From positions 2,098-66,097 of IMG/VR virus record IMGVR_UViG_3300050138_000573: 64,000 bases of DNA; one strand, written 5' to 3'. The position numbers and the translations under genes are program-made. The notes under the pieces were generated by a model. That model searched no databases. It was not told the DNA's origin and saw only the letters and a list, made by a program, of their open reading frames with translations. The stretch is from a virus (lineage: Duplodnaviria; Caudoviricetes). Below, one piece after another: positions 7,475 to 45,200 of the stretch; the first letter of the stretch is position 1; each line of letters begins with the position of its first letter.

Positions 7475-8299
7475 ATGAGCGAAGCCCTATTAGTCATCAC
7501 GAAGCCGATCCCGACTCCGATGGAGTTGGTGCCCGGCTCTTTCGTCGCCGACTTGGCCGACGCCGAGGCGATGGTCGCAAAGCTGGTCATCAGCGACGCC
7601 TCCACCGCCCAAGCCGCCGCCTATCTCCAACAGCGGCTCACGAAGGCCGGCACGGCGCTCGAGAAAGCGCGCGCTGACCTGAAGGCGCCACTTCTGGTTG
7701 CCGGCAAGCTGATCGACGAGACGGCCAAGGGCCCAGCCCTGCGCATCGAAGCGTGCAAGACCACGCTCAAGCGCGCCCAGGTGGCCTACGATGAGGAGCA
7801 ACGCCGCATTGCCGCCGAAACCGAGAAGAAGCGCCAGGCCGAGATCCGGGCCGCCGAGGAAGTGCGCCTGAAGGAACTGAAGCGGCTGCAGGACATCGCG
7901 GATGCCGAGGCCCGCGAAAACAAGCGGATCGCCGACGAACTCGCGGCGAAGACGCCCTACATCGGCCCGAAGGATGCCGAGGACGACCTCGACCTGGCCG
8001 ACGACACGCCGCCGCCGATCGAAAAGACCGAGACCCAGAAGGCGATCGAGGCGCTGAAGTACGCGCCGCTACCTGTGGCGCCGGCTGTGGTGCAACCGAA
8101 GACGCAAGGACTCGCGTTTCGCACCACGCTCAAGATCGCGAGCGTGGACGTGAACCTGCTGCCGGAGACCTTTGTCACGAAGACGGCGAACCTAGTCGCC
8201 CTGCGGGCGGTTTACACGTCCCCTTGGAAAGAGGGGCAGGTGCTGCCGGAGTGTCCTGGCGTGAAGTTTGAGGTCGAACGGAATCCGATCACCCGATGA
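7475..8299 (+). CDS. coiled-coil protein of recombination module
   Basis: long E/K/A/R helix; located next to annealase. Confidence 0.7.
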   Translation: MSEALLVITKPIPTPMELVPGSFVADLADAEAMVAKLVISDASTAQAAAYLQQRLTKAGTALEKARADLKAPLLVAGKLIDETAKGPALRIEACKTTLKRAQVAYDEEQRRIAAETEKKRQAEIRAAEEVRLKELKRLQDIADAEARENKRIADELAAKTPYIGPKDAEDDLDLADDTPPPIEKTETQKAIEALKYAPLPVAPAVVQPKTQGLAFRTTLKIASVDVNLLPETFVTKTANLVALRAVYTSPWKEGQVLPECPGVKFEVERNPITR

Positions 8300-8748
8300 C
8301 TCCCGACCCCGTACCGCCCGCCCCCGTCCGCGCCGACACGCAAGAGCTTGTGGCAACTCCATGCATCTTCCGCCCCGGTCGATTCGCGGGCGACGGCAAG
8401 AGCTACAGTCGGTCAGAGCGCAACGGCATCAAAGTGCCGACCCATAAAATGATTTACGAGGGCAAGTTCGGTTCTGTCCCTCACGGGCTAAACGTCTGTC
8501 ACCGCTGCAACAACAAGGGGTGCATTAACATCGATCACCTATATTTGGCGACGCAGAGCCAAAACATTCGCGACGCCTACCGCGACGGAGTTGCTATAAG
8601 TGGCAACACAAAGAAGACCAAATGCACGCGCTGCGGCGGACCGTATGAGTACAAAAAGAACGGCAAACGATTCTGTCGGCAGTGCGCGGCAATTCACACC
8701 GCCAAGTATCGAGCAAAACGGCGGATGGCCACACGAGGTGAATTATGA
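8296..8748 (+). CDS. HNH homing endonuclease
   Basis: VCHRCNNKGCINIDHLYLATQSQN; C-terminal CxxC pairs. Confidence 0.88.
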   Translation: MTPDPVPPAPVRADTQELVATPCIFRPGRFAGDGKSYSRSERNGIKVPTHKMIYEGKFGSVPHGLNVCHRCNNKGCINIDHLYLATQSQNIRDAYRDGVAISGNTKKTKCTRCGGPYEYKKNGKRFCRQCAAIHTAKYRAKRRMATRGEL

Positions 8749-21748: not shown

Positions 21749-24700
21749 TTATTGGGCCACACAAATTTTGTACGCGACTCCGCCAACATCCACTTGAATG
21801 TATCTCGTCGAGTCGAAAACCGTGGCGGTTGTGACCAAGATGCCGAGTTTCCATACTCCCGCTGTGCCACCAGAAGGAGCGCCGGACGTATAGGAGGCAG
21901 CGGTAATTTTCCCGGTCAGAAAATTGTCATCCGAACCCGCCTGATAGATGCCCCAATGCGTCGTAGCCGTGGCACCAGCAGCGATGTAAAGTTGATATGA
22001 GGTATTGAGGCCGCTCGTTCCCGTGACGGTGGGAGTGTTGATGACGTAGGAGAAGGCGAGCAAGCCAGTCAGACCTCCGCTCGTTGTCGCGAAGATAGAG
22101 GTGTTTTGCATTCCTGATAACGTATCGCTGTTGGCAGCTGCGGTGAGCGTGGGCTGCGCAAAAATGCCAATGCTTGAGCCGGCGCTTGTCGTCGCCGCTG
22201 GCGAGATCACTACCGGAATACGGGCAGTCGGCGATGCGCCGACACCTAATTGTGCCGCGACCACGGAACCGCCCGCGTTCACATTGCCGCCGCCGATGCC
22301 AACTGAGGTGGCTGAAGTACCGACCGTAGCAGCTACGATAAGACCACCGGTGATCGAGGAGACAGCACTCGTAGCGTCGATAAGAGCAAGCGTATGGTTT
22401 CGGGTGAAAATGGCGTTCGTTCCTTGAATCGGGGGGGACATGCCAACGGTGAACGCATCCGTGAAAGTCTGAGAAGCTCCGGCTGACGCGTAGGTCGGGC
22501 CACCGAAAAAAACTTCCCGCTGAAGACCAACCGTTCCGGTCGTCGCCCATGTCCTCGTCCCGGTGATTATGCGCCATCCGATCGATTCCGTCGAGGCCGT
22601 GATTCCAGTATCCGTCGGGGTGGTTGTGGACCAATAAGCCGCGACCCCTGAGGAACGTGCTGTCGGAGCAAAGGTGCTGGTGCCAGTGAATATCTGGGTC
22701 GTGCCTAGTCCGGCCACGGTAGCCGAGGCTGCGGGAAATGTCATTACGGTGGCGTCGGTTCCGGCCAGCGTAATCGTGTTTTGAAACGTCAGCGTTTTCG
22801 CTGCCGTCCCTGTCAGTGTGTAGCTTCCGGTCGTGAAGGTATTGCCGTTAAATGTCGTGCCCGAGATTGCGCCCCCAGCTGTGATCGTGCCACCGGCATT
22901 GATATTGCCTCCGCCAATGCCGACCGAAGTGGCCGAGGTCCCTACCGTTGCGGCAACAATCAAGCCGCCTGTAATTGAAGATGCGGCACTCGTAGAATCG
23001 ATGACGGCCAGCGTGTGACCGCGGGTGAAGATGGCATTCGACCCAGCAATTGGTGGTGACATGCCCACCGTGAAGGCGTCGGTAAAGGTCTGAGAAGCTC
23101 CGGCTGACGCGTAGGTCGGGCCACCGAAAAAAACTTCCCGTTGGAGACCGACCGTACCCGTGGTTGCCCAAGTGCGTGTGCCAGTCGCAATGCGCCAACC
23201 GATCGATTCCGAAGATGCAGTAATTCCAGTATCGGTAGGAATGTTGACCAAAAAATACGGGGCTGTGCCCGATGACCTCGCCGTTGGCGTCCAAGTGTGG
23301 ATGCCGGTCCAGGTCGGAGAATCGCCCAGAGCCACGCCGCCGGTTGATGCGGCCCAGGTCGTGTTACCCGAGCCGTCCGTCTGGAGAAACCAGAGATTGG
23401 TTCCTGCCGTGCTCGGCAACTTCAGTGTCCAGAATCCCGCCGCATCTGCGGTCGTGACCGTCACGACGCCAGAGGTCGTTCCGGCTATCTTCAGCAAGCC
23501 GGTCGCGCTGCTGGCGAGGCCCAGGGTCAGCGATTTGGTGAATTGGACAATGTTCGCGCGCAGCCCGTAAAGATTCGTCAGCGTGGCATTCGTGCCCTGA
23601 ATCGGGTCCGCGATGTCCACGTTGATCGCGGTGGTAAAAGTCGTGGCCGCAACCGCGGTAATAGTGTTCGCGCCAAAGACGTGCTCACGCTGCAGGGCGA
23701 CCGACCCCGTGGCCCATTGGCGCGTGCCGGCCGTAAAATTGACACCAATCGATTCCGTCGTGGCTGTGATCGCAGTGTCCGCCGGCATGGTCACCGTCAG
23801 GTAGGACGCGGCACTGGCGTTGCGCAGGGTCGGTACAAGGACATTGGCCGCGGTTGTCGTAAGAAGAGTGCCTGAACTCGGCAGTGTGAGCGACGTGTTG
23901 CCGGTGATCGTAAACGTGGTGGTGAACGCCCCTGAGAAGGTCACGCTTCCGCCGATCGTGATTAAGCTCGAGCCGTTGTTGACGCCCGTGCCGCCGTAGG
24001 TGCCAGTGACTACCGACCCTTGCCAGGCGCCGGTCCCGATAACGCCAACCGTTGTCAGCGAAGAGGTGACCACCGTGTTAGCGATCGTTGTCCCGGTCAG
24101 GTTTGCCGCATCCACTCCAATCGTGATCGGGATCGTGCCATCGAAATCGACGCCGTTGATTGCCCGAGCTGTTTGGAGAGCCGTCGCCGTCCCGGCATTG
24201 CCAGTGATGTTCGTCTGGTCGCCCGTGTTCGTGCCCGAGAGAGTCGCATTCCCTGAAAGAGTCAGCGTCCGGCTGGAGGTGCCGCCGGCGATGGTGAAGC
24301 CCGTGGACTGCGCCGCCAGCGTCAGCCCATTGACCGTGGAGGGCGTGATGGCGCCAAGGGTAAGCGTGATGGCTGGCGTGGTCGTGGCGTTCGCTACCGA
24401 GCCGGAAACGCCGTTCGCCGTGACGACAGAGACGGTTGTCACACTGCCTGACCCACCTGTGGCCGTCAGGCTGCCGCCAGACAGGGTAAGTCCCGAGCCT
24501 ACGGTAATCTCTTGGATCGCGCCGGTTGAGGCCGTGGTGCGGCCAAGTAGCCGCGCTGTGCTCATCGTCAAGCCCGAGGTCGTGGTCGCACCTGGCGCCA
24601 CGTAGTCGGTCGCCGCGGCGGCAATCGAAGGCACGCCAGTCGTGGTCGTGTTCTTCAGGATGCCTGTGGCCAACCCGCCGAGCGACGTGCCATTGATTTT

Positions 24701-25249
24701 CGTTACCGTGACCGCGATCGAAGTGCCCCCGCTTCCGCTGGCGTCGCCAGAAAGTGTGATCGTCTGGTTGGCTGTGAGATACGTGCTTGTGTCGATGATG
24801 AGCGTACCGTTCGCGCTCGAGGTTTTCACGAAGCCGTTCGTCGTCAGATTGGAAAGGCGGGTAATGACCTGCGCCGGATTCACGGTCACCGTGCCTGCGC
24901 TGTTTGTCAGGCCCGTCGAGAAGGTGAGGCTGCTCTGCTTGCCGGCCAATGCCGCCACGAGGTCGGCCTGATTGCTCAGGACGCCGCCGATGCTCCCCCA
25001 GTTGACCGACCCGCCCGAGCTCGTCGCGCTGAGAACGTTTCCAACAAGAGACAAATTGGCACCCAGCGTGATGTCCGCCGGCCGCACGCTGCTGTTGAAG
25101 CCGAGCAGGCTGTTGGCGACGGGCGTGACAAAGCGATCAACGTAGGCTGGTGGGCTGGCCGACGTGGCCTGGCTGATCTTCACATCGTTGACGGCAATGC
25201 CGAAGGCTGACGCGGCGGCCGCGAGGAACAGAGCGAGAATCTTCTTCAT
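21749..25249 (-). CDS. tail-fibre/adhesin-like T/G/S/A-rich protein with Sec signal peptide
   Basis: MKKILALFLAAAASAFG; fibre-like motifs (WGSIGG.LSNQ.DL, GNAGTATALQTARAINGV.FDG, SGTNTGDQ); internal duplication. Confidence 0.8.
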   Translation of the reverse strand: MKKILALFLAAAASAFGIAVNDVKISQATSASPPAYVDRFVTPVANSLLGFNSSVRPADITLGANLSLVGNVLSATSSGGSVNWGSIGGVLSNQADLVAALAGKQSSLTFSTGLTNSAGTVTVNPAQVITRLSNLTTNGFVKTSSANGTLIIDTSTYLTANQTITLSGDASGSGGTSIAVTVTKINGTSLGGLATGILKNTTTTGVPSIAAAATDYVAPGATTTSGLTMSTARLLGRTTASTGAIQEITVGSGLTLSGGSLTATGGSGSVTTVSVVTANGVSGSVANATTTPAITLTLGAITPSTVNGLTLAAQSTGFTIAGGTSSRTLTLSGNATLSGTNTGDQTNITGNAGTATALQTARAINGVDFDGTIPITIGVDAANLTGTTIANTVVTSSLTTVGVIGTGAWQGSVVTGTYGGTGVNNGSSLITIGGSVTFSGAFTTTFTITGNTSLTLPSSGTLLTTTAANVLVPTLRNASAASYLTVTMPADTAITATTESIGVNFTAGTRQWATGSVALQREHVFGANTITAVAATTFTTAINVDIADPIQGTNATLTNLYGLRANIVQFTKSLTLGLASSATGLLKIAGTTSGVVTVTTADAAGFWTLKLPSTAGTNLWFLQTDGSGNTTWAASTGGVALGDSPTWTGIHTWTPTARSSGTAPYFLVNIPTDTGITASSESIGWRIATGTRTWATTGTVGLQREVFFGGPTYASAGASQTFTDAFTVGMSPPIAGSNAIFTRGHTLAVIDSTSAASSITGGLIVAATVGTSATSVGIGGGNINAGGTITAGGAISGTTFNGNTFTTGSYTLTGTAAKTLTFQNTITLAGTDATVMTFPAASATVAGLGTTQIFTGTSTFAPTARSSGVAAYWSTTTPTDTGITASTESIGWRIITGTRTWATTGTVGLQREVFFGGPTYASAGASQTFTDAFTVGMSPPIQGTNAIFTRNHTLALIDATSAVSSITGGLIVAATVGTSATSVGIGGGNVNAGGSVVAAQLGVGASPTARIPVVISPAATTSAGSSIGIFAQPTLTAAANSDTLSGMQNTSIFATTSGGLTGLLAFSYVINTPTVTGTSGLNTSYQLYIAAGATATTHWGIYQAGSDDNFLTGKITAASYTSGAPSGGTAGVWKLGILVTTATVFDSTRYIQVDVGGVAYKICVAQ
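22270..23290 (-). repeat. internal duplication of ~135 codons, copies offset by 621 bp
   Basis: PTARSSG...TRTWATTGTVGLQREVFFGGPTYASAGASQTFTDAFTVGMSPPI...GGGN.NAGG occurs twice; ~54-bp identical DNA at 22467 and 23088. Confidence 0.9.
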
Positions 25250-25250
25250 T

Positions 25251-25532
25251 TTAGGAACTGGCTTTGAACCAGGCTTTAACATTGGTGACCGGATCGTAGT
25301 CCGTAGGCCGCACTACGCCGTCCTGGGTGTCGGTCGAGTTTGCGAAGAGTTTCCAGACCTGCTCCGTGCCGTCGTCCGCATTGATCCACGCGCGGATCGC
25401 CCCCGGCAGCAGATTCGTCGTCGCGACAGCCGCCAAGTCTGTAAGACTGGTAATGCCGACATCCCACTTCGCCGCGGTGCCGCCGGCGGTGCCGGGCGGG
25501 TTGTAGATGGCTGTGCCGGGACGGGTTTTCAC
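25251..25532 (-). CDS. small virion-associated protein
   Basis: 93 aa; VVRPTDYD...N.K.W motif; immediately upstream of fibre. Confidence 0.65.
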   Translation of the reverse strand: MKTRPGTAIYNPPGTAGGTAAKWDVGITSLTDLAAVATTNLLPGAIRAWINADDGTEQVWKLFANSTDTQDGVVRPTDYDPVTNVKAWFKASS

Positions 25533-30694: not shown

Positions 30695-31177
30695 GTGGAC
30701 GCTGCATTTCAGATCGGAGTTTACTCGATTACAAACCGAGCAAACGGCAAACGATATGTGGGCGTCACCTCGATTGATTTCCGAGTACGATGGCATCAAC
30801 ACAGAATTGATCTTCGCAAAGGAAGACACTGCAATAAGGGGCTTCAGGCGGATTGGAATAAAGTCGGCGAGAGCTCTTTCGAGTTTGCGATTCTCGAGGT
30901 CTGCTCGGCCGCTGACTGCAAATCAAAGGAGCAGGCTGCAATCCGTGATCTCAACGCTAGGAATCCCAACTTTGGATATAACATTGGGACGACCTATCAT
31001 AAATGCACGCCGGAGCGCGCACACGCAACGAGCGTCAGGTTTCGCGCGTGGTGGTCGGATCCCAATAATCGCGAGCAGTACAAAATTAACCAAACGCGGC
31101 GGTTGGCGCTCGGTCGATGGATTAAACGCCACCTCGGCATGAAACCCTCAACCATTGACTGGGAAGTAGCTGCATGA
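30695..31177 (+). CDS. GIY-YIG homing endonuclease
   Basis: GVYSITNRANGKRYVG...RW..H...L....H.N..LQ.DWN, FEFAILE, GYNI. Confidence 0.88.
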   Translation: MDAAFQIGVYSITNRANGKRYVGVTSIDFRVRWHQHRIDLRKGRHCNKGLQADWNKVGESSFEFAILEVCSAADCKSKEQAAIRDLNARNPNFGYNIGTTYHKCTPERAHATSVRFRAWWSDPNNREQYKINQTRRLALGRWIKRHLGMKPSTIDWEVAA

Positions 31178-33027
31178 AGATCGACCTCCAAAATCGCGCA
31201 CCGACTGTCACGCGCCTGCACGACTTTCGGCAGCGTGTGGAACGAAAGTGGGACGTGCTCAATTTCGTTCCGAAAACTCCACAGGAAATTTTGGACACCT
31301 GCTGGCTTCCGCTCGGCAGCGTCGATGACGAATATACGGATTGTTATCTCGTCGATCAAAAGGTGGTCGGCGAATTGGGTCCGTATGAAGATCCACAGAA
31401 AGAGCCGCCAGTCCTGTTGCGCGTGTACGAGCAACTCGATGGCCTTAACGAAACGCTCGTCGGTTCGCCGGACGTAATCATCGGTCAAGACGGATTAACG
31501 ATCGTCACGCTGCATTACTTACAACTCGAGCTAGGCACGGCGATCTACAAAATTCCAGGCACTGCCGTTTGTCCTGCACCGCACGACAACTGTGTTTTGC
31601 GTGATGAAAAACGTACTGACGATGGGACCCTCAGAACAATCGACAGGACGTACATATCGAGTGGCCTGATTTCCGAAACCGACGAGATCCACAACAACGG
31701 CGCGTTGTTGATGAAAACTTTGGTGTATGTAAACGAGACCGCGCCAACGCCGAGTGGCTATACGTTGATTTCGACAAAGACTGAGTATCCGGGCGGCCTG
31801 CCTGTGACCACCACGGTCTGGGCCAAAGGCACCGGGCAGGTTTCCTACCAGACCGAGTATCGGCTTTCACCTGACCAGGGCACGACTGGCGTGACCGTGA
31901 CGACGATCAAATATCTGACGACGCCATTGGTGAATGCCAATCCAATCACACCACCCGCGAGCTCGGTTGAAATCTCTGTGACCTACGAGGAATCAGAAGG
32001 GCATCGCGTGTGGACGGCGATCTACGCGTCAGGTCAGGGTACCATCGCGACTGACCTATCCATCGAGAATTTCGGGAAACTCGTTCTCTACAATATCACT
32101 TCGATCAACGCGCCGCCGAGCGCGCCGGCGCCGACCATCGGTGGCACGGTCACGCTAATCAAATCGTCGCAGCGCAACGGCACGCGTTTCGAGGACGGCA
32201 CCGTGATGTACGACTACGATTGGGCTGAGGGCCAGGGCGTCATCGACCAGCGCATCCAGACGCGCGATGGCGGGCTGAGGCTTGAGACGTGGGTTTCGCT
32301 CGGCGTTGCCTACGATCCCAGCTTCATGCTGCCTTTGGGTATTCTGGTGATGAAGGACCAGGAATTGGTCCGCGGCACGATGCGTTTTACCGTGTCGTGT
32401 ATGCAAAACGCGGCCGGCACCGATCCGACTGTTGGCACCGCACTTCAGTTTAACGACAAGCACCCGTTCCGCTATCCCGGCCGGGCGAAGGCTTATGTGA
32501 AGTCGTTCATCGCGATCGCGCCGGATGCCACTTCGTTCACCGCCCACGCCTACGATGTCTTTCTGTCGCCGCCGGTGGACCTCGAGGTGGATGCCACGGT
32601 TGATGTGACCTACGCCACTGACTCCACGCTTTCGCTTGGCACCGCGTTCTGGAATCCGGATAGCTGGGCGACGGTGGTGGCGGCGTGGGAAACCTACGAC
32701 ATCCGCCCGATCTCGGTCGTCCAGACCCACACCGGCTATCGTGCGGTCAGCCCCGGCCTGGTGCTCAACTTCACGGCCGGCACGGAAATCTCCAGCGGTG
32801 GTACAGTCATCCTCACCGGCGTTAATACGAGTTGTATGGGCCAGCGCGTTTACGGCACATCATCGGGATCGATCGTCGTGTACGGTGGTCCCCCAGCCCC
32901 GGATTATCGAACTTGGTATCTCGCCGCGCGCGTTGAACTGGCGTTCACCGGCCTTGATGGCACGCAGTATTTCCGCAAGACGCTCGTTTCCGCAACCATT
33001 CCAGGCCAGAGTGCGCTGCCTGTTTGA
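31174..33027 (+). CDS. 617-aa Thr/Gly-rich beta-protein, probable virion/tail component
   Basis: composition typical of structural proteins; 6 Cys; no signal peptide. Confidence 0.7.
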   Translation: MKIDLQNRAPTVTRLHDFRQRVERKWDVLNFVPKTPQEILDTCWLPLGSVDDEYTDCYLVDQKVVGELGPYEDPQKEPPVLLRVYEQLDGLNETLVGSPDVIIGQDGLTIVTLHYLQLELGTAIYKIPGTAVCPAPHDNCVLRDEKRTDDGTLRTIDRTYISSGLISETDEIHNNGALLMKTLVYVNETAPTPSGYTLISTKTEYPGGLPVTTTVWAKGTGQVSYQTEYRLSPDQGTTGVTVTTIKYLTTPLVNANPITPPASSVEISVTYEESEGHRVWTAIYASGQGTIATDLSIENFGKLVLYNITSINAPPSAPAPTIGGTVTLIKSSQRNGTRFEDGTVMYDYDWAEGQGVIDQRIQTRDGGLRLETWVSLGVAYDPSFMLPLGILVMKDQELVRGTMRFTVSCMQNAAGTDPTVGTALQFNDKHPFRYPGRAKAYVKSFIAIAPDATSFTAHAYDVFLSPPVDLEVDATVDVTYATDSTLSLGTAFWNPDSWATVVAAWETYDIRPISVVQTHTGYRAVSPGLVLNFTAGTEISSGGTVILTGVNTSCMGQRVYGTSSGSIVVYGGPPAPDYRTWYLAARVELAFTGLDGTQYFRKTLVSATIPGQSALPV

Positions 33028-33029
33028 AT

Positions 33030-33464
33030 ATGGCATCTGAAGATGATATTCCCACTCCGCCATTTGTTAAGCCTGTCTCGCAGAGGGACAGCTTTCAGGA
33101 TGACAGTGCGGACTACAACGAGCAGCCACCTGCCGATGTGCCGTCACCCGGCGGAACCTATGTCAGTGGCTATATAAAATCCACGACGCCCGAGGATCAT
33201 CAGCGGCGCGTGCCGAATGTGCCGTTCTCGGTGCCGGTTTCGAAGAAGAATCGGCTCGTGCCCAGGTATGAGGTAGAGGGCACCCCGGCGGCATCGAACA
33301 ACACTGATTCCAGTTCATCGGGCGGCGGGGGTGGCGGGGGCGGCACGCCTGATCCATCGATCCTCACCCAGCTTCAGATTTTCCAGAGCATGTTCGATTG
33401 CTTTAACATCGTGTGCGACGAATCCGGCACCTTGTCCTGGTCGTTCGATTGCGACGACTCGTAA
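33030..33464 (+). CDS. acidic protein with Gly linker and Cys-containing C-terminus
   Basis: ...DCFNIVCDESGTLSWSFDCDDS; stop abuts next ATG. Confidence 0.65.
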   Translation: MASEDDIPTPPFVKPVSQRDSFQDDSADYNEQPPADVPSPGGTYVSGYIKSTTPEDHQRRVPNVPFSVPVSKKNRLVPRYEVEGTPAASNNTDSSSSGGGGGGGGTPDPSILTQLQIFQSMFDCFNIVCDESGTLSWSFDCDDS

Positions 33465-34358
33465 ATGCCCACTTCCGGCACCACTGACAACCCGTGCGTC
33501 TGCTGCGCGGGTCTCATTCCCATATCGATGCTGTGCCGTCAACGCGGGGGCACCGCTTCGTTGGTGGGATGCTCAGCCTACACATCACCAAGCAGCCCAC
33601 CAAAGAAATATCGGCGCGCACAACTTTCCGGTTCATCAACCTCGGACGAATGGACTAACCAGTTTTGCTCCGGGCCGTTTGATGCGGGAACAGTAACGTG
33701 TGTTTATACTGGATTTATTCAATATGATGCGGGCACCGGACTTCCGACGACGGGAGGTTCGACGGTTTGCAACGGCGTCCCTATCGGCACCGGCGCTGCA
33801 TGCGGCACTTTTGCGGAACAGTGCAATGTCACCTACACCTACACGCCCACAACAGCCACGCGTGTCGATACCGCTAACTGTTGCATTCAACCTAACGGGA
33901 ATTACCTGAAATCACGCGCGTCTGCCGAGAGTTTTGTCGCGACACTCTCCGATGAAGACACGAACGATGACGCGATTGCCCGCCTGCTCGCTGGCGCCGG
34001 CGGAACGTGGGGCGGCTGGAGTGCAACAGCCAACGATGGATCGGCCTGCGCGCCTTCGGTGTGCTGCTTGGCGCAGTGGTCGATTCGCACGACAGGGTTC
34101 GACATCGCCTACAACGAAGCGCAATTCCGTGTTGACGGGACTTCGGCAGGGCTAACCCCCCTCACCAACTACACCATCAAGGTCGATATTTACCGGCGCG
34201 TGTCCGGTTCTCTCGGCGCCTACACGCTTTTCGAAACTCAAGACTTTCCGATCACTACGGATGCTGATGGCAACTTCGCCTTTTTTGATGGCGACGTGCC
34301 GAACGATGAGGGGTTTCAAACTTTTTCGTCCCGAGCTTACGCGGTCCTGGCGCCATGA
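33465..34358 (+). CDS. cysteine-rich protein (15 Cys), putative disulfide-bonded virion protein
   Basis: CVCC, NCC, VCC clusters; no signal peptide. Confidence 0.8.
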   Translation: MPTSGTTDNPCVCCAGLIPISMLCRQRGGTASLVGCSAYTSPSSPPKKYRRAQLSGSSTSDEWTNQFCSGPFDAGTVTCVYTGFIQYDAGTGLPTTGGSTVCNGVPIGTGAACGTFAEQCNVTYTYTPTTATRVDTANCCIQPNGNYLKSRASAESFVATLSDEDTNDDAIARLLAGAGGTWGGWSATANDGSACAPSVCCLAQWSIRTTGFDIAYNEAQFRVDGTSAGLTPLTNYTIKVDIYRRVSGSLGAYTLFETQDFPITTDADGNFAFFDGDVPNDEGFQTFSSRAYAVLAP

Positions 34359-34789
34359 TCCGTCTGCCATCAAAGATTACGCTCCACGCGCCGCACCTCG
34401 CGGGGAAGCCCTTGATGCAGGGTCCCAATCTGCCGGTGCCCGTCGTCGCAGCCAAGCCTGCGATCAGGGGCAAAATCCCCAACACGCCTTCGACCTGGCC
34501 TGAACTTCATAAACGCGCGCTGTCGCACGAGGGAAAGAATGACCTGTTGTGGTTGATGATGTTTGGTGCACGCATTGCGGGTAGCTGCGCCTGTCGCGAG
34601 AGTTGGAAAAAGGAGCTCATGATGCTGCCTCCGGACTTCAAAAACTATTTCTTCTGGTCGGTGGCGATTCACAACATGGTCAATGTGCGGTTGGGCAAAC
34701 CGCAGGTGAACGTCGATGAGGCGCGGAAAATCTGGGCTACCCCATCCCCGGCTGCCCCTGTCCTCCCTGAGCTGCCGGCTGCGTCGTGA
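34355..34789 (+). CDS. Erv/ALR-family FAD-dependent sulfhydryl oxidase-like protein
   Basis: WPELH helix, SCACRESW dithiol, FFWSVAIHNMVNVRLGKP (WxxxxHNxVN FAD motif). Confidence 0.8.
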   Translation: MIRLPSKITLHAPHLAGKPLMQGPNLPVPVVAAKPAIRGKIPNTPSTWPELHKRALSHEGKNDLLWLMMFGARIAGSCACRESWKKELMMLPPDFKNYFFWSVAIHNMVNVRLGKPQVNVDEARKIWATPSPAAPVLPELPAAS

Positions 34790-35054
34790 GGATCTGCCGG
34801 CACGCGGTTTCGTCCTCGACCATCATCGTGTCGATGAGCCAGTCGTATTCCAGCAGGATGAGCCGAAGAGCCTCGCGCTTGTCCTTATCCACCTTGGTCG
34901 GCGGATCGTGCAGAAAGCTCCGTGCACACGAATCCCGCCGTTGTTTCACCCGCCGCAGCCAATAGGCGTTGAACGCCTCGGCCTCCCGCAACGTCCGGAT
35001 GTAATTCAGGTCGCGCTGCGCGTGCTGCTTGGAGCGGAGGGGTTCGTTGCTCAC
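34737..35054 (-). CDS. hypothetical protein
   Basis: GTGA-coupled to GT9; converges on and overlaps the oxidase gene. Confidence 0.55.
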   Translation of the reverse strand: MSNEPLRSKQHAQRDLNYIRTLREAEAFNAYWLRRVKQRRDSCARSFLHDPPTKVDKDKREALRLILLEYDWLIDTMMVEDETACRQILTTQPAAQGGQGQPGMG

Positions 35055-36184
35055 GTGACGAGTTTGAGTTCAAACTTTTTCGCGATCCGTTCCAGCCGTT
35101 CCACGATCGTCTCCGGCTTGATCGACTCAAGCACTTCGCACAGGCCGCGCGCTTTACTCGGGCAGTTGTCGGGAAAATAATTCCGCTTGGTCGGGATAGC
35201 GTGGTGAAAGCACGGCGCGCACTTCCCACTGCCACTGAGCGCCACGGTCGTAGGGCAGTAGCGTGTGCGGAGATCAGCGGGGAACGGCCCATAGAGACCG
35301 ACCGCGGGGATGCTGAGGGCGCCGGCGATGTGCAACAGGGCCGAGTCCGCGCCGAGGAACACGTCGGCATTGTTGATAACGGCACAGCTTTGGCGAAAAG
35401 TCAGGCCGGCGGCCGCGAGATTGCGGAGGGATGCCGTCTCCTCGATTTTGATCTCACCTTTCTGGCCCATCAGGAAGACCTCCCAGCCTTTCTTCACGAG
35501 TTTATCGACTACCTCGCCCATTTTTTGGATTGGGTAGGTGCGGCAGTGGGCGCTCGTGCCGACCTGGATGCAGATACGCCGCGAGCCAACCACGCGCGGA
35601 TACTGCTCCATGACCCAGATGGACTCATTCTCGGTGACGGCGTAGGCCGGCTTCTTGTCGAGGATTGCCGGCGGCCCTTTGCCGAGCAGCGACAGATCGC
35701 GCACGCTGCCCTTGAGCCCGGTGATTTCGGCGAAGAGGTCAGTCATGTGCAGTTGCTTCGCGCGCGGATTGCGCTCGATCGCGTTCTCGAAAATAACCTG
35801 CGCATCGTAGCTGTTGAAAGCGGCCGCGGGCACCGGGTCTTGGATGATTTCATCGATGAACGGCAAATTCTGAAGAACCTGCTGGTAGTGCTTCATGGTC
35901 GCCACCCCGATGAAACACTTCGGCCAGCGCCGCTTGATCTCGCGAAGCACGGGCGTCAGCAGCACCAGGTCGCCAAAGCCACCGATCCGCACGAACAGGA
36001 CGCGTTTTCCGTTCCAGTCCTTGTCCTCGTCGAATAGCTTCCCCATGTCCACGGCGCGCATCGTACCACCGCCGGCGTGCGTCACGAGTTGGGCAGCCGA
36101 CAGATCCTCGGTAATGTATTCCCCAGCGGGGATGACGTAGCTCGGCGTGAAAACAACCGGGTCTTTGAGAGTCAGGTGGTGCAT
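35051..36184 (-). CDS. glycosyltransferase family 9 (heptosyltransferase-like)
   Basis: RIGGFGDLVLLTPVLREIK..WP; FLGADSALLHIAGAL.IP.VGLYGP; CAPC. Confidence 0.9.
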   Translation of the reverse strand: MHHLTLKDPVVFTPSYVIPAGEYITEDLSAAQLVTHAGGGTMRAVDMGKLFDEDKDWNGKRVLFVRIGGFGDLVLLTPVLREIKRRWPKCFIGVATMKHYQQVLQNLPFIDEIIQDPVPAAAFNSYDAQVIFENAIERNPRAKQLHMTDLFAEITGLKGSVRDLSLLGKGPPAILDKKPAYAVTENESIWVMEQYPRVVGSRRICIQVGTSAHCRTYPIQKMGEVVDKLVKKGWEVFLMGQKGEIKIEETASLRNLAAAGLTFRQSCAVINNADVFLGADSALLHIAGALSIPAVGLYGPFPADLRTRYCPTTVALSGSGKCAPCFHHAIPTKRNYFPDNCPSKARGLCEVLESIKPETIVERLERIAKKFELKLVT

Positions 36185-39229: not shown

Positions 39230-42200
39230 TCAATCTGTTCCGGTGCGCTGGAGTTGCGGCGGCATGCGGTGAAGGGCCTGCAGCGCCCGCTGTCCGAGTT
39301 GCATCCGACTCTGTTTGGCGCGAATGTAGGTCGCGCGTTGCTCAGGATTGAGGGTGCGAATGAACTCGGTTTCGCGGCCCTTTTGCCCGGTGAAAGGATG
39401 GCTCGCCCATTGTTTGAAATGCTTCTCGATTTGTGCAGGCGTCTTTTTCTGTAGCAGCGTCTCGAGTTCCTTCCTCATGTCGTCGGGGTTATTGCGGCGG
39501 GCCGCTGCCGTCATGTCGGTGAAATCGCCGGCGTAAAACTCGGCGGAAGGTGTGATCTTCTTCGTGCTGTTGAAGTCGCGCGCCAGTGAACTCATGCGCT
39601 GTTCGGGCGACGGCGCGGTGTCGGTCTTGAGACCCATCGATTGCATGGCCTGCTTCTGGAACTGGCCGGGAAAGTCCTCAGTGTTGCCGCCTGTCGCGAG
39701 TCCTTTTGCCGCCGCCGTAAGTGCCGAGCCGCCGATCGGCAGCGGGACGGCAGATTTCGCCACTTCTTTCGGCAGGTCCTCCGGCTTGATCTTCTGGCCC
39801 GTGCCGGTCTCTTTGAACATGGCGGTCCAAATTGGCCGGGCCGCGACCGAGACGCGTCCGCGGGCGTAATCAAGAAACGGCTGCCAGGCATTCCCGCTGC
39901 GTTCGTAACGCGTGAGCAGGAGGTGCGAGACCTCAGCCATAATGCCGAGGGGGTTGAGGAAAAAGCCCGAACTCTTTCCACCCACCTTGTCGGGGATCCA
40001 TGCCGAGAGTTTCGAACCCCACTCTTCCTCGGGGTTCTGCCAGGTGAATTTGCCGCGGGTCATCTGATTCACGATCTGGTTGGCTGCGAAAATTCCGAGC
40101 GCGCCGGTCACCATCTGCCGACCAAGGAAGCCCATCGCGAGCCGCTTACCGCGGACGGCATCAAGCGCGCTTTTGCCAATCTGGCTGACGCCTCCTACCT
40201 CTGATTTGATGAGCCCTTCATTCCAGCCGGGAGCGAGTGCAGCGAGACGCGAGATGTCTTGGGCGCTGCGGGACTTGAACCAGCCCTGCCGTCCGATGTT
40301 ACCAAACCGCGTATTGAGATCCTTGGCGACCTGCCGGGCAACCTGGTCCTGCGATAGTTCGGGGTAGGCTTTGCTCTGCCGGTTGTATTCGATTGAACCG
40401 ACTTCCTGCATCGCGCCGCGCGTGAACTTTTCGAAGATGAATTTGTTGAGCGTGCCGAGGCCGGGGACGCTCCGAATCAGTTCTTGGTGCATCGCGTCGC
40501 CCACCTGCCCGATGTTGTAGCCATTTCGAATGAGCCGGTTCGTGGTCGCCTTCTGTTCGATCAAGTGTGGCAGCGCCTTCGGATCAATCTCCCCGTTCTT
40601 CGCCATCGTGGCCAGTTCACTCGGGCTGTGGTCGAGGATGTTAAGGCCCTTCGCGTAACTCGGGATTGGGAGACGGGGATCGGTCAAGCTCGCCGCCTTC
40701 GCAATCGCCTCGTAGGTCGCGACGCGGCCCAAGTGATACGTGTCGGCCACCAGTGCGATCGACTTGCCCGCCGCATTGAGTTTGAGCGTCGTTTTGAGAA
40801 CCTGATTGTGCTGGAAAAAGCTGGGATTGGTCAGCGCCCCGATGATGCCGCGGTATTCTTTCTTCACCGCGATGGGCACCTGACCGCCGAGAAATTCGTT
40901 TTTGTAGCCCGGCGGTTCCTGATAGTAGGTGCTGCCATCCGCACGTTCAACCCGGGCCGGCTTCACGACGATGGGCTTCTTGGACGCCGGATCGATGTAG
41001 TTGTGCAGCGAGTCCTGCCACATGCGCGCGGCGACGCCGGTTTCGCCGGCGCTGATCCGGCTGCTCAGCAGCGTAAGCGCGTCGAGGGTCTTTGGGTTCG
41101 TGCCGGCTGAAATCGAATCGGCGTGCGTATCAAAGACGCGATTCTTGCGGCTGGAGGCGCCGGTCGGCGACATGCCGGCGCCGGTTTCGCCATCCAAAAC
41201 CTTCTCGAGCCAAGTGCCATCCTCGATGTCCTGCGCGTGCATGACATAGTTGTTGCGCTTGAGGGTGGGCATCCCGATGGCCTGTTCGCGTTCGGCCTGC
41301 GCGTCCGTGAGTGCTTTGTAGAGATCAGCTGCCGGCTGCATTTTGGCGTGGTTCTCTTTCGCGAAATCGATGGCCGCGATGGCGCGCGCCTTCCACTTGG
41401 GGTCGGCCTTGGTCGATGCCTCGAGCTTTGCCTTCATGGCGTCCAAGGCTTTGATGCCACCTTCGCCGGCCTCAACGTGCATGCCGATGGCATCGCCGGC
41501 GAGCGGCGGCTTCACGTCTTTGCCCAGCGCACGCTTCAGGGCGTTGTCCACGCTGGTTTCGGCTTCGCGGCCGGTCTGCTTCGCCATGTTTTCGCCGGCT
41601 TCTCTCGTATAAACCAGAGTGTCCTTGATGTCGCCCCTCTGCGACGCATCGTTCCAGGCTTTGACGATTTTCGACTTGGATGCTTCAGCTTGGGGCGACG
41701 AGATGACGGCGGCAGCTTTCTGGTCGGCTTTGGCCTTCGCGTCGTCCTGAGCGATCCGGTTGCGCTCGTTTTTTGCCTCCCGCTCAAGCTGAGCTGGAGA
41801 CCATGTGACTGATTTGTTGGATTCTTGGAGGCTCTGCAGGTGCGCCTGAACACGATCTTCGACGCTGCCAGCTTCGGCTTTCGGTGCCTCTGCGGTGCCA
41901 TGCACGCTCGCGTGCGCATCGCGGATGGCCTTCTCGAGCCGTGCTTGGTCCGCCGTGGTCGCGCCGGGATATGCAGCCTTGAGTCGCGTCACCGCCAGTT
42001 TGACCATGTGCGCGAGCTCGCGACCGGCCTTCACCCCAAGGATGGCCAAGTCGAGCGCACTGTCGTAGGCGGTAGCGAGTCCCGTGGGATCACCCAGCAC
42101 CTTGCCGCTGCCGGGTTTGTTGATCTTCGCGTTGTTGAGCGCGTCGATCAGCTTGTCTGAAAGTTTCTTCGGCTCATCGGTCACACCAAGTTGGCCGCGG

Positions 42201-45200
42201 CGCAGCTTGCCGACCGCGTTGATGATCTCAGCGGGGGTGGCATCAGCCAGCGGCTTCCCGTTGATTTCCTTCACGCCGGCGTCGGTGAGTTCCGCGGCGC
42301 GTTCGGCGCGCGACATCTGTGCCGGCGGCTTGCGCGTGTCGTCGTCCATCGATTTCCGCGGCGCCTCGGTGGTGGTCGGCTCCGGCTCGGCTTTCTTGGC
42401 GGCGGATTCGCGTGCGGCATTATTTGCCTTGTCCATCGCCGTCGGCGCGGTGCTCCGGGTTTCCTCGGGCGCGAACATTTCCGGCCCTTTATCAGCGGCA
42501 GCCTTTGGTGCTTCCGGCGCCTTTACTTCCTCGCCTGCCAAGTTGAACGGTGTCTTGTCGCCAAGCAGTTCTCCCTTCGCTGGCGCGGCGGCCTCTCCCT
42601 CGGGAGCGAAATCCGTGCTGAGTTTCCCGCCCTTGATCTTGCCCTTGTCAGGAAAGATGCGGGTGCCTGCCGGGACTGTGCGGGTGATGCCGTCCTCGAT
42701 CGTCACATTTCCGTGCTCGTCAATGTCCTTCACCGTGAACTTTTCGCCGTTCACCTCGAAGTGGTTGCCGACCGCGAGCTGGTCCACGGTCACGGGTTTG
42801 TTGTCCCGCAGCCACTCTTTCTTCTGTTCACCCGAGAAAAATGCGCGCTCGAATTTATCGAGATACTCGCCGCGCTTCTGCTGCGCGCGATCGCTCTGCA
42901 TCGCCATCCGTTCCTTCTGGCGCATGACCACGGCCTTGCGAATCTCACTGTTGAGCGATTCAACCGTGCCATCAGGGATAAGTCCTTGGGCGTGGAGGTC
43001 CTGTGCAAGCGTGTCGGGCTTCACGCCGTCCTTGCGCAGTAGCCGTGCGGCCACGCCGGGCAGGGCTTGGTCATCGTATTCACCACCAGGGTTTTTGGCA
43101 GATGCCCGGGTTTTGATGCCGCCGGCCTGCTCGACGTGGTTCAAGATGTCGAAGTTGCCGCGCGGGGTGTTGCCGATACCAATTACCTTGGCTTTTGGCT
43201 CATATTTGCCTCTATTGGCGGTGCCGGAGCCCTCCTGGCCTGCAGCCGGGACAGCCGCCGCAGCGCCTTTTGCGCTGGGTTGGGGTTCAGCCTGGTTTAC
43301 GACGGGCTGTTCCCCAGCCGAGGCTGTCGGTTGATCCTTGGTCTGGAATTCGGAGGCATCCGCAACGTGATAGCCGCCTTGAGCCATACGCACCTCGATC
43401 TTTCCATCTGGCATGATGCGCGTGACTTTTCCAATGCGCGCGCTTGGGCCATGAAGTCCGGGTACCGTGAATTTCACGGTCTGTCCAACGCCGGGTTTCG
43501 CTACTTCCGGCCGAACAGCTTCCTCACCTTTAGCTTCGGGTTGTGTTCCTGCCGCTCGAACGACGGGCTTTCCGCCCTCTCGTGGCGCGGACTCTCCTCC
43601 GGCCCCGGCGGTTGCTTTCTCGCCTGCGACAGCGCCACCGCCACGGACTGTTTCTGTGCCGTTTTCGCTCCGAACTTGTTCGCTGTTTTTTGAAACGTCG
43701 GTCCCTTGTGGAACTCGCGGATGTTCTGACTCACGATTTTGGGGCTGCTGCCCTTCAGTAGTGGCATTGGATGGTTCTCCTTTTTGGGTTTTATCTTTGG
43801 CAATGGCTGCCTTGATTTCGTCGAGAGTGTACGTGCCTTTCTCGAGGGATTCCGGCACATCGGGCAGTTCGTGACCGAGTTCTTTCAGTAACCGCAGGTT
43901 CGTCGAGCCGTAGGTCCGCACCTTGTCCGACTTGGACTCGGGTGCATTGGGACTCGACAGATCGACCTGCATCACTCGGCTATGGCCTTCCGGCACCGCC
44001 TCACGCGGATAGACGTTGTAGTGGTATGTCGTGTCCTTATCGGCTATGCCGGCCTTGATCCCGGCGAGTTTGGTGGGGCCGGCCTTCTGCGCCTCCGGTC
44101 CCGGCGCGGGTTCGGTCGGCTCATTTTTGGCGGGCGCGCCGGGCTCTTCGGGCGGCGTCCCTTTCTCTTGCGCGGCCAAATCTTCCTTCAGCTTTGCGCC
44201 GCCCTCGCCGGATTTGCGCAGCCGGTCGGCAGCGGTGAGTTCGTTTTCGATGGCTTCGCGTCGCATCGTGAGTGCGTCGTGCCGGGCCTGAGTCCTGGCC
44301 TCGGGGAGTTCCACGCCCAGCGCCTTCTGCCGGTCGGCTTCCGCCGCCGCTTCTTTGGCGGATTTCGCGGGCTGGCTGTCTTTGAGCTTTTGAATTTCCG
44401 CCGCTGCCTCGGCCTCTTGGCCGGTCTTCGTGACGTGATCCTGCCACTCGGCGTCGAGTCGCTTCAGGTCGGCGCGCAGTTCAGTCGCGCGGCGCTCAGG
44501 ATCCACCACAAGCGGATTTTTCTGATACTTCGCCTCTTTCTTCAGTTCGTCGTGCCAGGCGTCGATGTCCTTGCCGGCGCGTGTCGCCAGGATTTCGCCG
44601 CGGCTCTTCCCGGTCGAATCCTGAATCTGATCCACGAGTTTTTGCGCGGACTCCTCCTTCGCGGCGGCGCGGCGGTTAAGCTCCTCGTGCGCCTTGAAAG
44701 CCTGCGCGGATTCCTCCGCGGACTTCGCCGGCGGAGGGACATCAGCCTTCCCCTTCTCCGCATCTGGCACGAGGGTCTTGGCGGACTCGGCCGCGCTCTT
44801 CGGCGCGCCTTCACCCGTCGGCTTGAATGGCTCGGCGGCTGGCGCGGGCTCGACCGGCGCGGCGGCCGGTGGCGGAGTCTCAGACTGCGGGGCTGGCGGT
44901 TCTTCCGGCGCGTGAGCACCGCGGGGAGAGAGCGCCTGGATTGCGCCGAGTCCGGTCGCGGCACCGGCCACACCTTCCATCGCAGGGCGTCCCTCAGCGA
45001 CGTTGCTCGCTGCGGCTGACGTGCCGCCAAGGACCGCCCCCTCCGTGGCCTGCGCGACGCGGTTCGTGAGGAATTTCGTGAGCGCATTGCCCGCGATTTT
45101 ATCGACGATCAGTTTGCTCGTAGCCTTCTGCAGCGGCTTCGGAAGCAGTGCGAAAAGAGCGGCTTGGACACCGCCGGAAAGGAGCGCGCGATTCACGGCC

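Follow-up and report, generated by a model that had tools for sequence, protein, structure and literature searches.

The bacterial cytoplasm is generally treated as a compartment that excludes disulfide formation, and strains engineered to carry yeast Erv1p represent the biotechnological workaround. Can a bacteriophage bring an oxidase of this family with it, and on which protein would such an enzyme act? This question is raised by a locus in the IMG/VR virus record IMGVR_UViG_3300050138_000573, of which positions 2,098 to 66,097 were analysed as one stretch of DNA (hereafter the window; 64,000 of the 66,097 bases of the record, whose CheckV completeness is 100%). In the window, a gene for a protein of 144 amino acids (aa) related to the Erv/ALR sulfhydryl oxidases begins inside the end of a gene for a Cys-rich 297-aa protein, the ATG of the former overlapping the TGA of the latter (ATGA; gcgccATGAtcc). 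A preliminary description, made from the letters of the sequence, had proposed that the phage uses a cytoplasmic oxidase to fold disulfide-rich tail or receptor proteins. After homology searches, structure prediction and comparison of related loci, the best explanation is a phage-borne cytoplasmic sulfhydryl oxidase that would oxidise a virion or tail-tip protein, with a probability that we put at about 0.6. The coordinates of the features discussed are collected in Table 1.

An Erv/ALR Homologue in a Tailed Phage

The 144-aa protein carries the motifs WPELH, SCACRESW and WSVAIHNMVNVRLGKP where the preliminary description had placed them, and it is a homologue of the Erv/ALR oxidases, as had been claimed. 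In a hidden Markov model search, it matches the Pfam family Evr1_Alr (PF04777) at E=3.7e-5 with 24.5 bits, short of the curated cut-off of 27.6; the proteins in the equivalent position of loci L086, L091 and L092 exceed that cut-off with 44.7, 38.8 and 38.9 bits. Taken alone against solved ALR chains, the protein gives weak matches (best E=0.0076). An exhaustive homologue search returned 862 cluster representatives at E<=1e-3 and 144 at E<=1e-10, and a profile of 96 family members, compared with the PDB, matches 15 solved chains at E<=0.01, all of them from the Erv family. Its top matches are pB119L of African swine fever virus (ASFV; 3gwl, 1.6e-14) and human and rat ALR (about 5e-13), followed by Erv1 of yeast and Arabidopsis and by Erv2 (1e-8). 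Across the 96 sequences, W48, H52, C80, W101, H106 and N107 are invariant, and N110 and K115 are conserved in at least 90%. In Erv/ALR enzymes, the residues of W-x3-H and H-N-x-V-N...K contact flavin adenine dinucleotide (FAD), and the phage protein would probably bind the cofactor as well.

Residues 1 to about 44 of the protein form an N-terminal leader that is disordered, and residues 48-127 form a helical core; the N- and C-terminal thirds are of low complexity and Pro-rich. Its AlphaFold2 (AF2) model, although of low confidence, contains five helices (48-57, 64-74, 79-89, 98-113 and 120-127), in agreement with the four-helix bundle plus short fifth helix of the Erv fold. When this model is searched with Foldseek, ranks 1-25 are all Erv, ALR or QSOX structures (probability 0.91-1.00, TM score by target 0.42-0.58), and it is highly probable that the 144-aa protein has the Erv fold. 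The bacteriophage origin supposed in the preliminary description is supported as well, the record being complete and the window encoding an SU10-type portal (PF23899, 2.1e-19), an SU10 adaptor, a terminase, a major capsid protein (phrog_334, 1.2e-10) and a tail-fibre-like 1177-aa protein.

A reading frame of this size could also be a chance or decaying Erv-like remnant without function, as its Pfam score below threshold and its low-complexity, Pro-rich terminal thirds might suggest. Nevertheless, homologues at 56-76% identity keep every signature residue, the family counts its cluster representatives in the hundreds (862, as given above), the synteny is conserved, and the same stretch occurs in a second peat sequencing run (0.47 of sampled words). 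The conservation data already contradict a remnant, and we regard it as extremely improbable.

A CxC Replaces the Flavin-Proximal CxxC

The 144-aa protein has two cysteines only, C78 and C80, and the flavin-proximal CxxC that the family has at the start of helix 3 is absent. An alignment artefact masking a CxxC was considered and rejected, since the protein holds no further Cys. Both residues are invariant in five homologues at 56-76% identity, in which the residue between them varies (A, D or E), and this fixation of the pair around a variable position makes the CxC look functional. The fold and the flavin signature being those of the family and the defining CxxC being missing, the protein is a variant rather than a plain member of Erv/ALR.

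It had been suggested that the CxC might mark a distinct subfamily. The variant itself is real and widespread: the 154 nearest cluster representatives comprise 75 with CxC, 71 with CxxC (often C-G-E-C), one with both, three with neither and four without a recognisable HNxVN. Similar proportions are seen in the viral loci examined: out of at least 350 IMG/VR contigs with an Erv relative, the 80 best were kept, and the 63 Erv open reading frames (ORFs) in them include 29 CxC versus 27 CxxC forms. Many viral relatives carry exactly C-P-C at this site, and CxC forms from L045, L024 and L006 (C-P-C) exceed the Pfam threshold (37.4, 34.0 and 36.4 bits). The distance from the first Cys to the signature His of HNxVN is 28 residues in CxC forms and 29 in CxxC forms, which leaves the second Cys in register and brings the first one residue closer. 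On a FastTree phylogeny of 145 core domains, computed with the motif columns removed and noisy with its roughly 85 columns, there are 23 changes between CxC and CxxC, compared with a mean of 49 (range 40-57) for shuffled labels; the two states appear clustered on the tree, yet they do not fall into a single clade. In addition, both forms occupy the same genomic slot beside the 297-aa family. Because the two interleave on the tree and share this slot, the CxC does not define a separate subfamily, and it is better described as a frequent alternative active-site state within what the comparison suggests is one viral family.

In solved Erv enzymes, the second Cys of the pair is the flavin-side Cys. 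CxC disulfides such as the CPC of Mia40 and the CGC of the Erv2 tail are strained and strongly oxidising, and these two, like synthetic CGC peptides, illustrate that a CxC can cycle as an oxidising disulfide, which makes a catalytic CxC plausible. Unlike the CxC of the phage protein, which takes the place of the flavin-proximal pair, theirs is a thiol-exchange site away from the flavin. If real, a flavin-proximal CxC chemistry would be new for the Erv family.

Among the viral loci, the relative of the window protein that ranks second is a 92-aa Erv protein with C-K-C (L005, 6491-6769). Its contig, which bears the name of a giant-virus metagenome-assembled genome (MAG) and has a GC content of 0.29, carries repeated F-box-like paralogues typical of large eukaryotic viruses, so that CxC Erv proteins seem to be present on both sides of the phage/giant-virus divide. 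The largest group in the 80 loci (L006, L008, L016, L018, L020, L033-L042 and others) consists of Erv ORFs of 224-235 aa, in which an unassigned 130-aa N-terminal domain precedes a C-P-C Erv domain. The genes of this group often stand just after those for a giant Cys-free protein (2,000-2,500 aa) and a protein of about 430 aa with 7-10 Cys.

Erv Genes Next to Cys-Rich Genes

The ATGA overlap, the 15 Cys of the 297-aa protein and the three C-terminal Cys of the protein encoded before it are all found in the sequence as had been reported. The same pairing recurs elsewhere. Counted without redundancy, a member of the 297-aa family is encoded directly upstream of Erv in the window, in L094 (a close relative of the window phage), in L086/87 (the same contigs as L003/4), in L091 (the same contig as L002), in L092 and in L010. 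Apart from this pair, the loci outside the window have hardly any genes in common with it. The Erv protein in this position has a CxC in L094 and a CxxC in the remaining four. Unrelated Cys-rich proteins take the upstream place in L027 (414 aa, 18 Cys), L057 (239 aa, 12 Cys), L025 (178 aa, 7 Cys), L045 (455 aa, 41 Cys) and L024 (291 aa, 25 Cys). In bacterial genome assemblies, the Cys-rich gene is followed by Erv at four of four loci, found in a Phycisphaerae MAG (two contigs), a Tepidisphaeraceae MAG and a Verrucomicrobiaceae MAG, the Cys-rich products having 284 aa and 12 Cys, 472 aa and 20 Cys, 931 aa and 48 Cys, and 262 aa and 21 Cys. Near the N-terminus, in the first 10-20 residues, many of the Cys-rich upstream proteins carry a run of the kind CCC, CxCC or CC-x-C. 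In L062, the two partners are joined in a single protein, in which a 17-Cys domain is connected by a Ser-rich linker to a C-terminal Erv domain.

The enrichment can also be seen in numbers. Of the same-strand genes upstream of Erv at 41 non-redundant loci, 23 could be evaluated; the median Cys content of their products is 2.3%, and 7 of them reach 4%. Among 455 background ORFs, the median is 1.4%, and 6.2% reach 4% (Mann-Whitney p=1.8e-4, a value that overstates independence because the genes were called crudely, as greedy longest ORFs, and the loci are phylogenetically related). Downstream, 10 neighbours could be evaluated, and all of them stay below 4%. What stands of the coupling to Cys-rich genes postulated at the outset is therefore a recurrent adjacency and fusion, often at the distal end of tail modules, with the upstream enrichment and the four bacterial loci on its side; it is not obligatory, given the loci of the 297-aa family without Erv that are described below.

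Erv domains are also fused to glycosyltransferases, of family GT25 in L023 (7428-9254) and GT9 in L100 (6763-9924). Together with the GT9 gene that converges on the Erv gene in the window lineage, these fusions suggest that the same clients are oxidised and glycosylated. In L045 (7824-8930) and L024 (5173-6156), the Erv protein has a C-terminal extension of about 230 aa with no Pfam match.

The gene neighbourhood bears directly on whether an active Erv enzyme might have another target. It could oxidise host thiols (glutathione-like pools or thioredoxin) or produce H2O2, and so reprogramme or kill the host, time lysis or counter defence, its adjacency to a Cys-rich gene being a consequence of shared late expression. 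The glycosyltransferase fusions show that the Erv domain is used in several contexts, the upstream neighbour is not rich in Cys in 16 of the 23 cases that could be evaluated, and neither a shuttle disulfide nor a recognisable partner accompanies the oxidase, all of which would suit such a role. A target of this kind would leave unexplained the translational coupling to a Cys-rich gene, the direct fusion in L062, the confinement of the Cys enrichment to the upstream and not the downstream neighbour, and the placement in virion or tail modules instead of early or lysis modules. We consider it quite improbable.

The Cys-Rich Neighbour as a Candidate Substrate

If the oxidase has a dedicated client, the 297-aa protein is the candidate proposed here. 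Its 41 homologues have 4-23 Cys each, most of them 13-19 in about 295 residues, and eight near-invariant Cys characterise the family, among them those of a C-x-C-C...C cluster at the N-terminus. Several of the variable columns gain or lose their Cys two at a time (columns 120/140, with both Cys in 11 members and a single one in 2; 34/92, with 24 and 5; 19/290, with 6 and 3). This is the pattern expected of disulfide partners, and it is suggestive of such bonds while confounded by shared ancestry. In Cys density, the protein ranks only 4th among the 59 window ORFs of at least 100 aa. Three denser ORFs (5.3-6.0% Cys) lie at 177-2662 and 8296-8748, and at least one of them encodes an HNH endonuclease with a zinc-binding loop, so that Cys density alone is no marker of a disulfide client in this genome.

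The AF2 model of the 297-aa protein is confident (predicted local distance difference test, pLDDT, 90.3; predicted TM score, pTM, 0.81) and mostly beta, with an Ig-like sandwich and an inserted beta domain. In Foldseek searches of the PDB with this model, all global matches stay below a TM score of 0.2; the insecticidal and enterotoxin beta-proteins in the top rows (probability at most 0.57) were not read as related. A search of BFVD gave none at E<=0.001, and the best VIA-align wide match, to Ig-like adhesin repeats, has a Z of 6.4, within the range that the tool calls common. The predicted fold is thus one with no convincing solved relative among these PDB and BFVD structure searches. For the 297-aa and the 617-aa protein, the ESM Atlas has only poor models (pLDDT 0.45 and 0.44, respectively), whose neighbours, at TM scores below 0.4, are uninformative. 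A metagenome scan with the 297-aa protein yielded four loci only. A complex prediction for the 297-aa and Erv proteins with FAD scored 0.03 against a mark of 0.32, which is evidence neither way.

The site of action would be the cytoplasm. In the four island proteins (617, 146, 297 and 144 aa), no 19-residue Kyte-Doolittle window exceeds 1.5 (maxima 0.99-1.49), and a crude check of their hydropathy found no N-terminal charged region followed by a hydrophobic core, in line with the absence of signal peptides noted in the preliminary description. The N-terminus of the 297-aa protein was considered separately as a signal or lipoprotein peptide, and this was rejected on hydropathy and charge; residues 18-32 are confident beta-strands in the model.

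An Exchangeable Slot and a Shared Leader

How constant is the partnership within the 297-aa family? There are 13 non-redundant loci of this family with a readable downstream region. Erv follows in 6 of these, another small Cys-motif protein in 4 (L085/88, L095, L084 and L093) and nothing comparable in 3 (L083, L089 and L090); no Erv was found elsewhere on five Erv-less contigs of the family, which are 35-64% complete. The slot protein of L085/88 has a weak match to DUF6171 (2.7e-4) with C-x2-C...C-x2-C-G-C, that of L095 is similar, and those of L084 and L093 have C-x2-C followed by basic residues. The N-terminal leader of the window protein conforms to a consensus common to 15 aligned slot N-termini, 11 from Erv and 4 from non-Erv proteins (L085 8849-9229, L084 8851-9243, L093 2701-2934 and L095 2589-2924). 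Since all four substitutes carry the leader of the Erv type, the slot can be described as a portable leader combined with exchangeable Cys-motif modules. From its distribution, the leader looks like a portable docking or targeting peptide.

The absence of Erv, or another protein in its place, at more than half of these loci is the first of several points that weigh against an oxidase devoted to the 297-aa family. In the oxidase itself, the defining CxxC is absent, we know of no characterised Erv enzyme with a flavin-proximal CxC, the Pfam score stays below the gathering score, and the AF2 model is poor (mean pLDDT 58, core blocks 58-76; built from 5 sequences). As regards the neighbours, 16 of the 23 evaluable upstream ones have less than 4% Cys, the large group of 230-aa CPC-type Erv proteins has neighbours that are moderately Cys-rich (about 2%), and the p-value carries the overstatement already mentioned. 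On the side of the substrate, Cys counts are odd in 29 of 48 members of the 297-aa family, with no preference for even numbers. Finally, the record was obtained from peat, and O2 may be a limiting substrate for such an oxidase there.

Part of this evidence would fit a different arrangement, in which the 297-aa protein uses its Cys to coordinate metal (Zn or Fe-S) or keeps them reduced, the slot protein is an assembly chaperone or adaptor docked by its leader, and the Erv fold is structural or became inactive when the CxxC was lost. Its main support is that non-Erv Cys-motif proteins with the same leader fill the slot in the 4 of 13 loci listed above, including that of the close relative L085/88. 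In addition, the N-terminal CxCC...C cluster is as reminiscent of a metal site as it is of a disulfide knot, and both the mostly odd Cys counts and the absent CxxC speak for this arrangement. A decayed enzyme would not be expected to keep its flavin-side residues and both Cys of the CxC invariant or nearly so in a large family, nor are CxC and CxxC forms in the same slot readily explained in this way. Moreover, the variable Cys columns change in pairs and not in fours, and Erv stands beside many unrelated Cys-rich proteins (up to 9% Cys), for which a general oxidase fits better than a specific chaperone. A metal-binding or reduced client with an adaptor in the slot is accordingly judged improbable, and oxidation of the Cys-rich neighbour remains the preferred explanation.

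Virion Context, Distribution and Hosts

The client of the oxidase would belong to the virion. In L099, the genes follow the order tape measure (phrog_8462, 1e-44), three small genes, the gene for the 931-aa protein with 48 Cys, and Erv. Tape-measure matches upstream of the pair are also found in L025 (6e-6) and L003 (0.006); four other tape-measure candidates have no PHROG match. L085/88, whose capsid (E=8e-236) and portal (1e-299) are close to those of the window phage, has a colinear order of giant protein, portal, 617-aa homologue, Cys-rich protein, small slot protein, scaffold and capsid. Lying between portal and scaffold/capsid, the 617-aa and Cys-rich genes of L085/88 very probably encode virion components. 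By the same comparison of gene order, the 617-aa protein of the window is probably a virion protein, and the gene position of the Cys-rich 297-aa protein suggests a tail-tip or receptor-binding role.

At least 350 IMG/VR contigs encode an Erv relative, and 5 of the 80 that were kept carry giant-virus MAG names. In a sample of 301 genomes from the phylum of one bacterial carrier, one has Erv, and it is the carrier itself (at most 14 candidates were scored per genome). The wealth of viral contigs and the single carrier in its phylum indicate a phage gene rather than a host gene. A scan of IMG/VR with a five-sequence Erv alignment retrieved only L001, a contig with a CxxC Erv, whose DNA primase-helicase-like and multisubunit RNA polymerase genes identify it as a large eukaryotic virus. 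When 50,697 deposited phage records were searched by tblastn with the Erv protein, the sole match was to a non-phage, Mollivirus (43% identity over residues 80-127); isolated and deposited phages seem to be devoid of close Erv relatives at the sensitivity of tblastn. The bacterial carriers point to Planctomycetota and Verrucomicrobiota as hosts, a pattern that comes from one narrow scan, so that the true range may be wider.

Proposed Mechanism

The model that best interconnects these observations is that the phage encodes a minimal Erv/ALR-fold flavin sulfhydryl oxidase which, together with virion proteins, would be made late in infection in the host cytoplasm, from a translationally coupled gene pair. 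The oxidase, possibly docked on its client through the conserved N-terminal leader, would introduce disulfide bonds into the Cys-rich 297-aa protein encoded upstream, which is probably a tail-tip, receptor-binding or other exposed component of the virion. Electrons would pass from the substrate thiols to the CxC (with C78 as the exchange Cys and C80 next to the flavin), and from there to FAD and O2. The resulting disulfides would stabilise a protein destined for the outside. Among 50 window ORFs of 70-450 aa, no member of the thioredoxin, glutaredoxin or DsbA Pfam families was found at E<=0.001, a search that would miss divergent relays. A relay of the poxvirus kind is thus not evident, and with no shuttle Cys and no recognisable thioredoxin-fold partner in the window, the oxidase would act on its substrate directly.

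A broader proposal can be put forward, with doubt. Phages of Planctomycetota and Verrucomicrobiota, and probably others, might run a cytoplasmic line resembling that of the endoplasmic reticulum (ER), in which exposed tail-tip proteins would be oxidised by minimal CxC Erv enzymes and glycosylated by glycosyltransferases encoded beside the oxidase or fused to it, with a docking leader also used by DUF6171-like and other Cys-motif modules. The large eukaryotic DNA viruses might further have obtained their Erv gene from this phage clade, or the two might have a common source; the closest solved relative of the clade is ASFV pB119L, and its CxC forms include some on contigs labelled as giant viruses. 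As a whole, we hold this scenario to be doubtful.

Relation to Known Systems

The best solved relative, ASFV pB119L, is likewise a small single-domain viral protein (about 100-140 aa) with W-x3-H and HNxVN and without a shuttle Cys. It acts in the cytoplasm on virion proteins and works with a CxxC partner, pA151R. Several differences separate the two: pB119L has a CxxC (C-T-R-C) and the window protein a CxC, the window protein adds a 45-residue N-terminal leader, the host of the window phage is a bacterium and not a eukaryote, and no partner comparable to pA151R is recognisable in the window. The E10R-A2.5L-G4L system of vaccinia virus is a three-component cytoplasmic disulfide pathway with a thioredoxin-like end member, and it is alike in concept, as a virus-encoded Erv makes disulfides of virion proteins in a reducing cytoplasm. 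It is unlike the present case in that the window oxidase gene is coupled (and elsewhere sometimes fused) to that of its putative substrate, with no relay family found among the 50 ORFs searched.

With yeast Erv1 and Erv2 and human ALR, the phage protein shares a homologous flavin-binding helical core, and many of its CxxC relatives carry C-G-E-C, which is the motif of Erv2. The cellular Erv/ALR enzymes act in mitochondria or the ER and have a second, shuttle disulfide on a flexible arm, in contrast to the two Cys, spaced as CxC, of the window protein. Periplasmic DsbA/DsbB (or VKOR) also provide disulfides to outward-facing proteins; these systems are unrelated, being membrane-bound or periplasmic and quinone-linked, whereas the window proteins have no signal peptide or membrane segment by hydropathy. 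In large eukaryotic DNA viruses, the Erv gene is regarded as a core gene.

Searches of full-text literature brought up neither a bacteriophage Erv nor an Erv with a CxC, although listings given only in supplements would escape such a search. The accessible part of one study places the Erv family in a few bacterial groups, including Pirellula (Planctomycetes) and Verrucomicrobiaceae, with CxxC as its signature and, in that part, no link to phages; it argues for a eukaryote-linked acquisition of viral Erv from the absence of bacterial homologues in the relevant branch (PMC10598087). Disulfide-crosslinked siphovirus tail tubes are reported in the accessible part of another paper, whose reference list cites the work on pB119L (PMC13576161).

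If the proposed role is true, phages reshape the redox chemistry of proteins within bacterial cells, just as poxviruses and ASFV do within eukaryotic ones, and the hosts concerned, which are poorly studied, are infected by phages with a class of Cys-rich, possibly glycosylated, tail-tip proteins. It would also bear on the origin of the Erv gene in large eukaryotic DNA viruses, and it would offer very small oxidases (a core of about 90 residues, two Cys, CxC) for the cytoplasmic production of disulfide-bonded proteins.

The Island and Its Surroundings

The structural genes of the window are mostly on the minus strand, and the Erv gene closes a plus-strand island (30695-34789) that is flanked by scaffold/capsid genes on one side and GT9/portal genes on the other. 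The island genes follow the order GIY-YIG endonuclease, 617-aa, 146-aa, 297-aa (15 Cys) and 144-aa protein, and their starts and stops abut or overlap (Table 1), the endonuclease stop overlapping the start of the 617-aa gene.

Table 1. Positions of the Erv gene, its motifs and the surrounding genes in the window.
Feature	Position	Strand	Remarks
GIY-YIG homing endonuclease	30695..31177	+	Pfam GIY-YIG 2.4e-10; phrog_7168 2.4e-19; heads the island
617-aa protein	31174..33027	+	6 Cys; directly after the portal gene in colinear L085/L088
146-aa protein	33024..33464	+	TTG start 33024, likely start ATG 33030; 3 Cys near C-terminus
297-aa Cys-rich protein, proposed substrate	33465..34358	+	15 Cys (5.1%); N-terminal CxCC cluster at 33495-33506
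144-aa Erv/ALR-type sulfhydryl oxidase homologue	34355..34789	+	Pfam PF04777, family profile, AF2/Foldseek
N-terminal leader KITLHAPHLA	34373..34402	+	Consensus hydrophobic-x-hydrophobic-x-H-A/R-P-x-L, then Pro-rich stretch
W48-x3-H52 (WPELH), helix-1 signature	34496..34510	+	Aligns to W...LH of pB119L and ALR
CxC (C78-A-C80), in place of the family FAD-proximal CxxC	34586..34594	+	Within SCACRESW (34583-34606)
W101...H106-N107-x-V-N110...K115 signature WSVAIHNMVNVRLGKP	34655..34702	+	Aligns to HNxVN of solved Erv enzymes
GT9 (heptosyltransferase-family) glycosyltransferase	35051..36184	-	Pfam PF01075 9.4e-17; convergent on the Erv gene

The preliminary description had also drawn the 617-aa and 146-aa proteins into the oxidase pathway, and this part of the proposal is not supported, as nothing beyond synteny ties them to the oxidase. 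Sequence searches of Pfam, PHROG and the PDB returned no match for the 617-aa protein, whose homologue in L085 was found at E=4e-149. The 146-aa protein, whose Cys tail reads C-x4-C...C, received no family assignment from Pfam or PHROG searches. In L085 and L088, no separate gene lies between those for the 617-aa homologue and the Cys-rich protein (382 aa in L085), and the latter has an extra N-terminal extension of about 90 residues where the window has the 146-aa gene. From this position, a counterpart of the 146-aa protein may have been fused to the Cys-rich protein; a phmmer search of the 146-aa protein against L085 gave no match at E<=1e-3.

The island is inverted relative to the portal in the window; in L085 (3580-9229) and L088, the portal gene is followed, in the same orientation, by the 617-aa and Cys-rich genes. 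The GIY-YIG endonuclease may be involved in the rearrangement of the island. The GT9 neighbourhood is kept in L094, L085/88 and L096. Between terminase and portal, the window encodes a 2805-aa protein (39230-47647, minus strand) with zero Cys and no PHROG match, which has a homologue in L085/88 (E=6e-220). All nine sequencing runs listed with the stretch are peat metagenomes, and no RNA run is among them. One may be the source of the record, another is the second run mentioned above, and the others contain small shares of its sampled words. A homologue of the 1177-aa fibre-like protein of the window (21749-25282) is encoded in L003 (1083-3149, 688 aa), and it has a hydrophobic N-terminus resembling a signal peptide.

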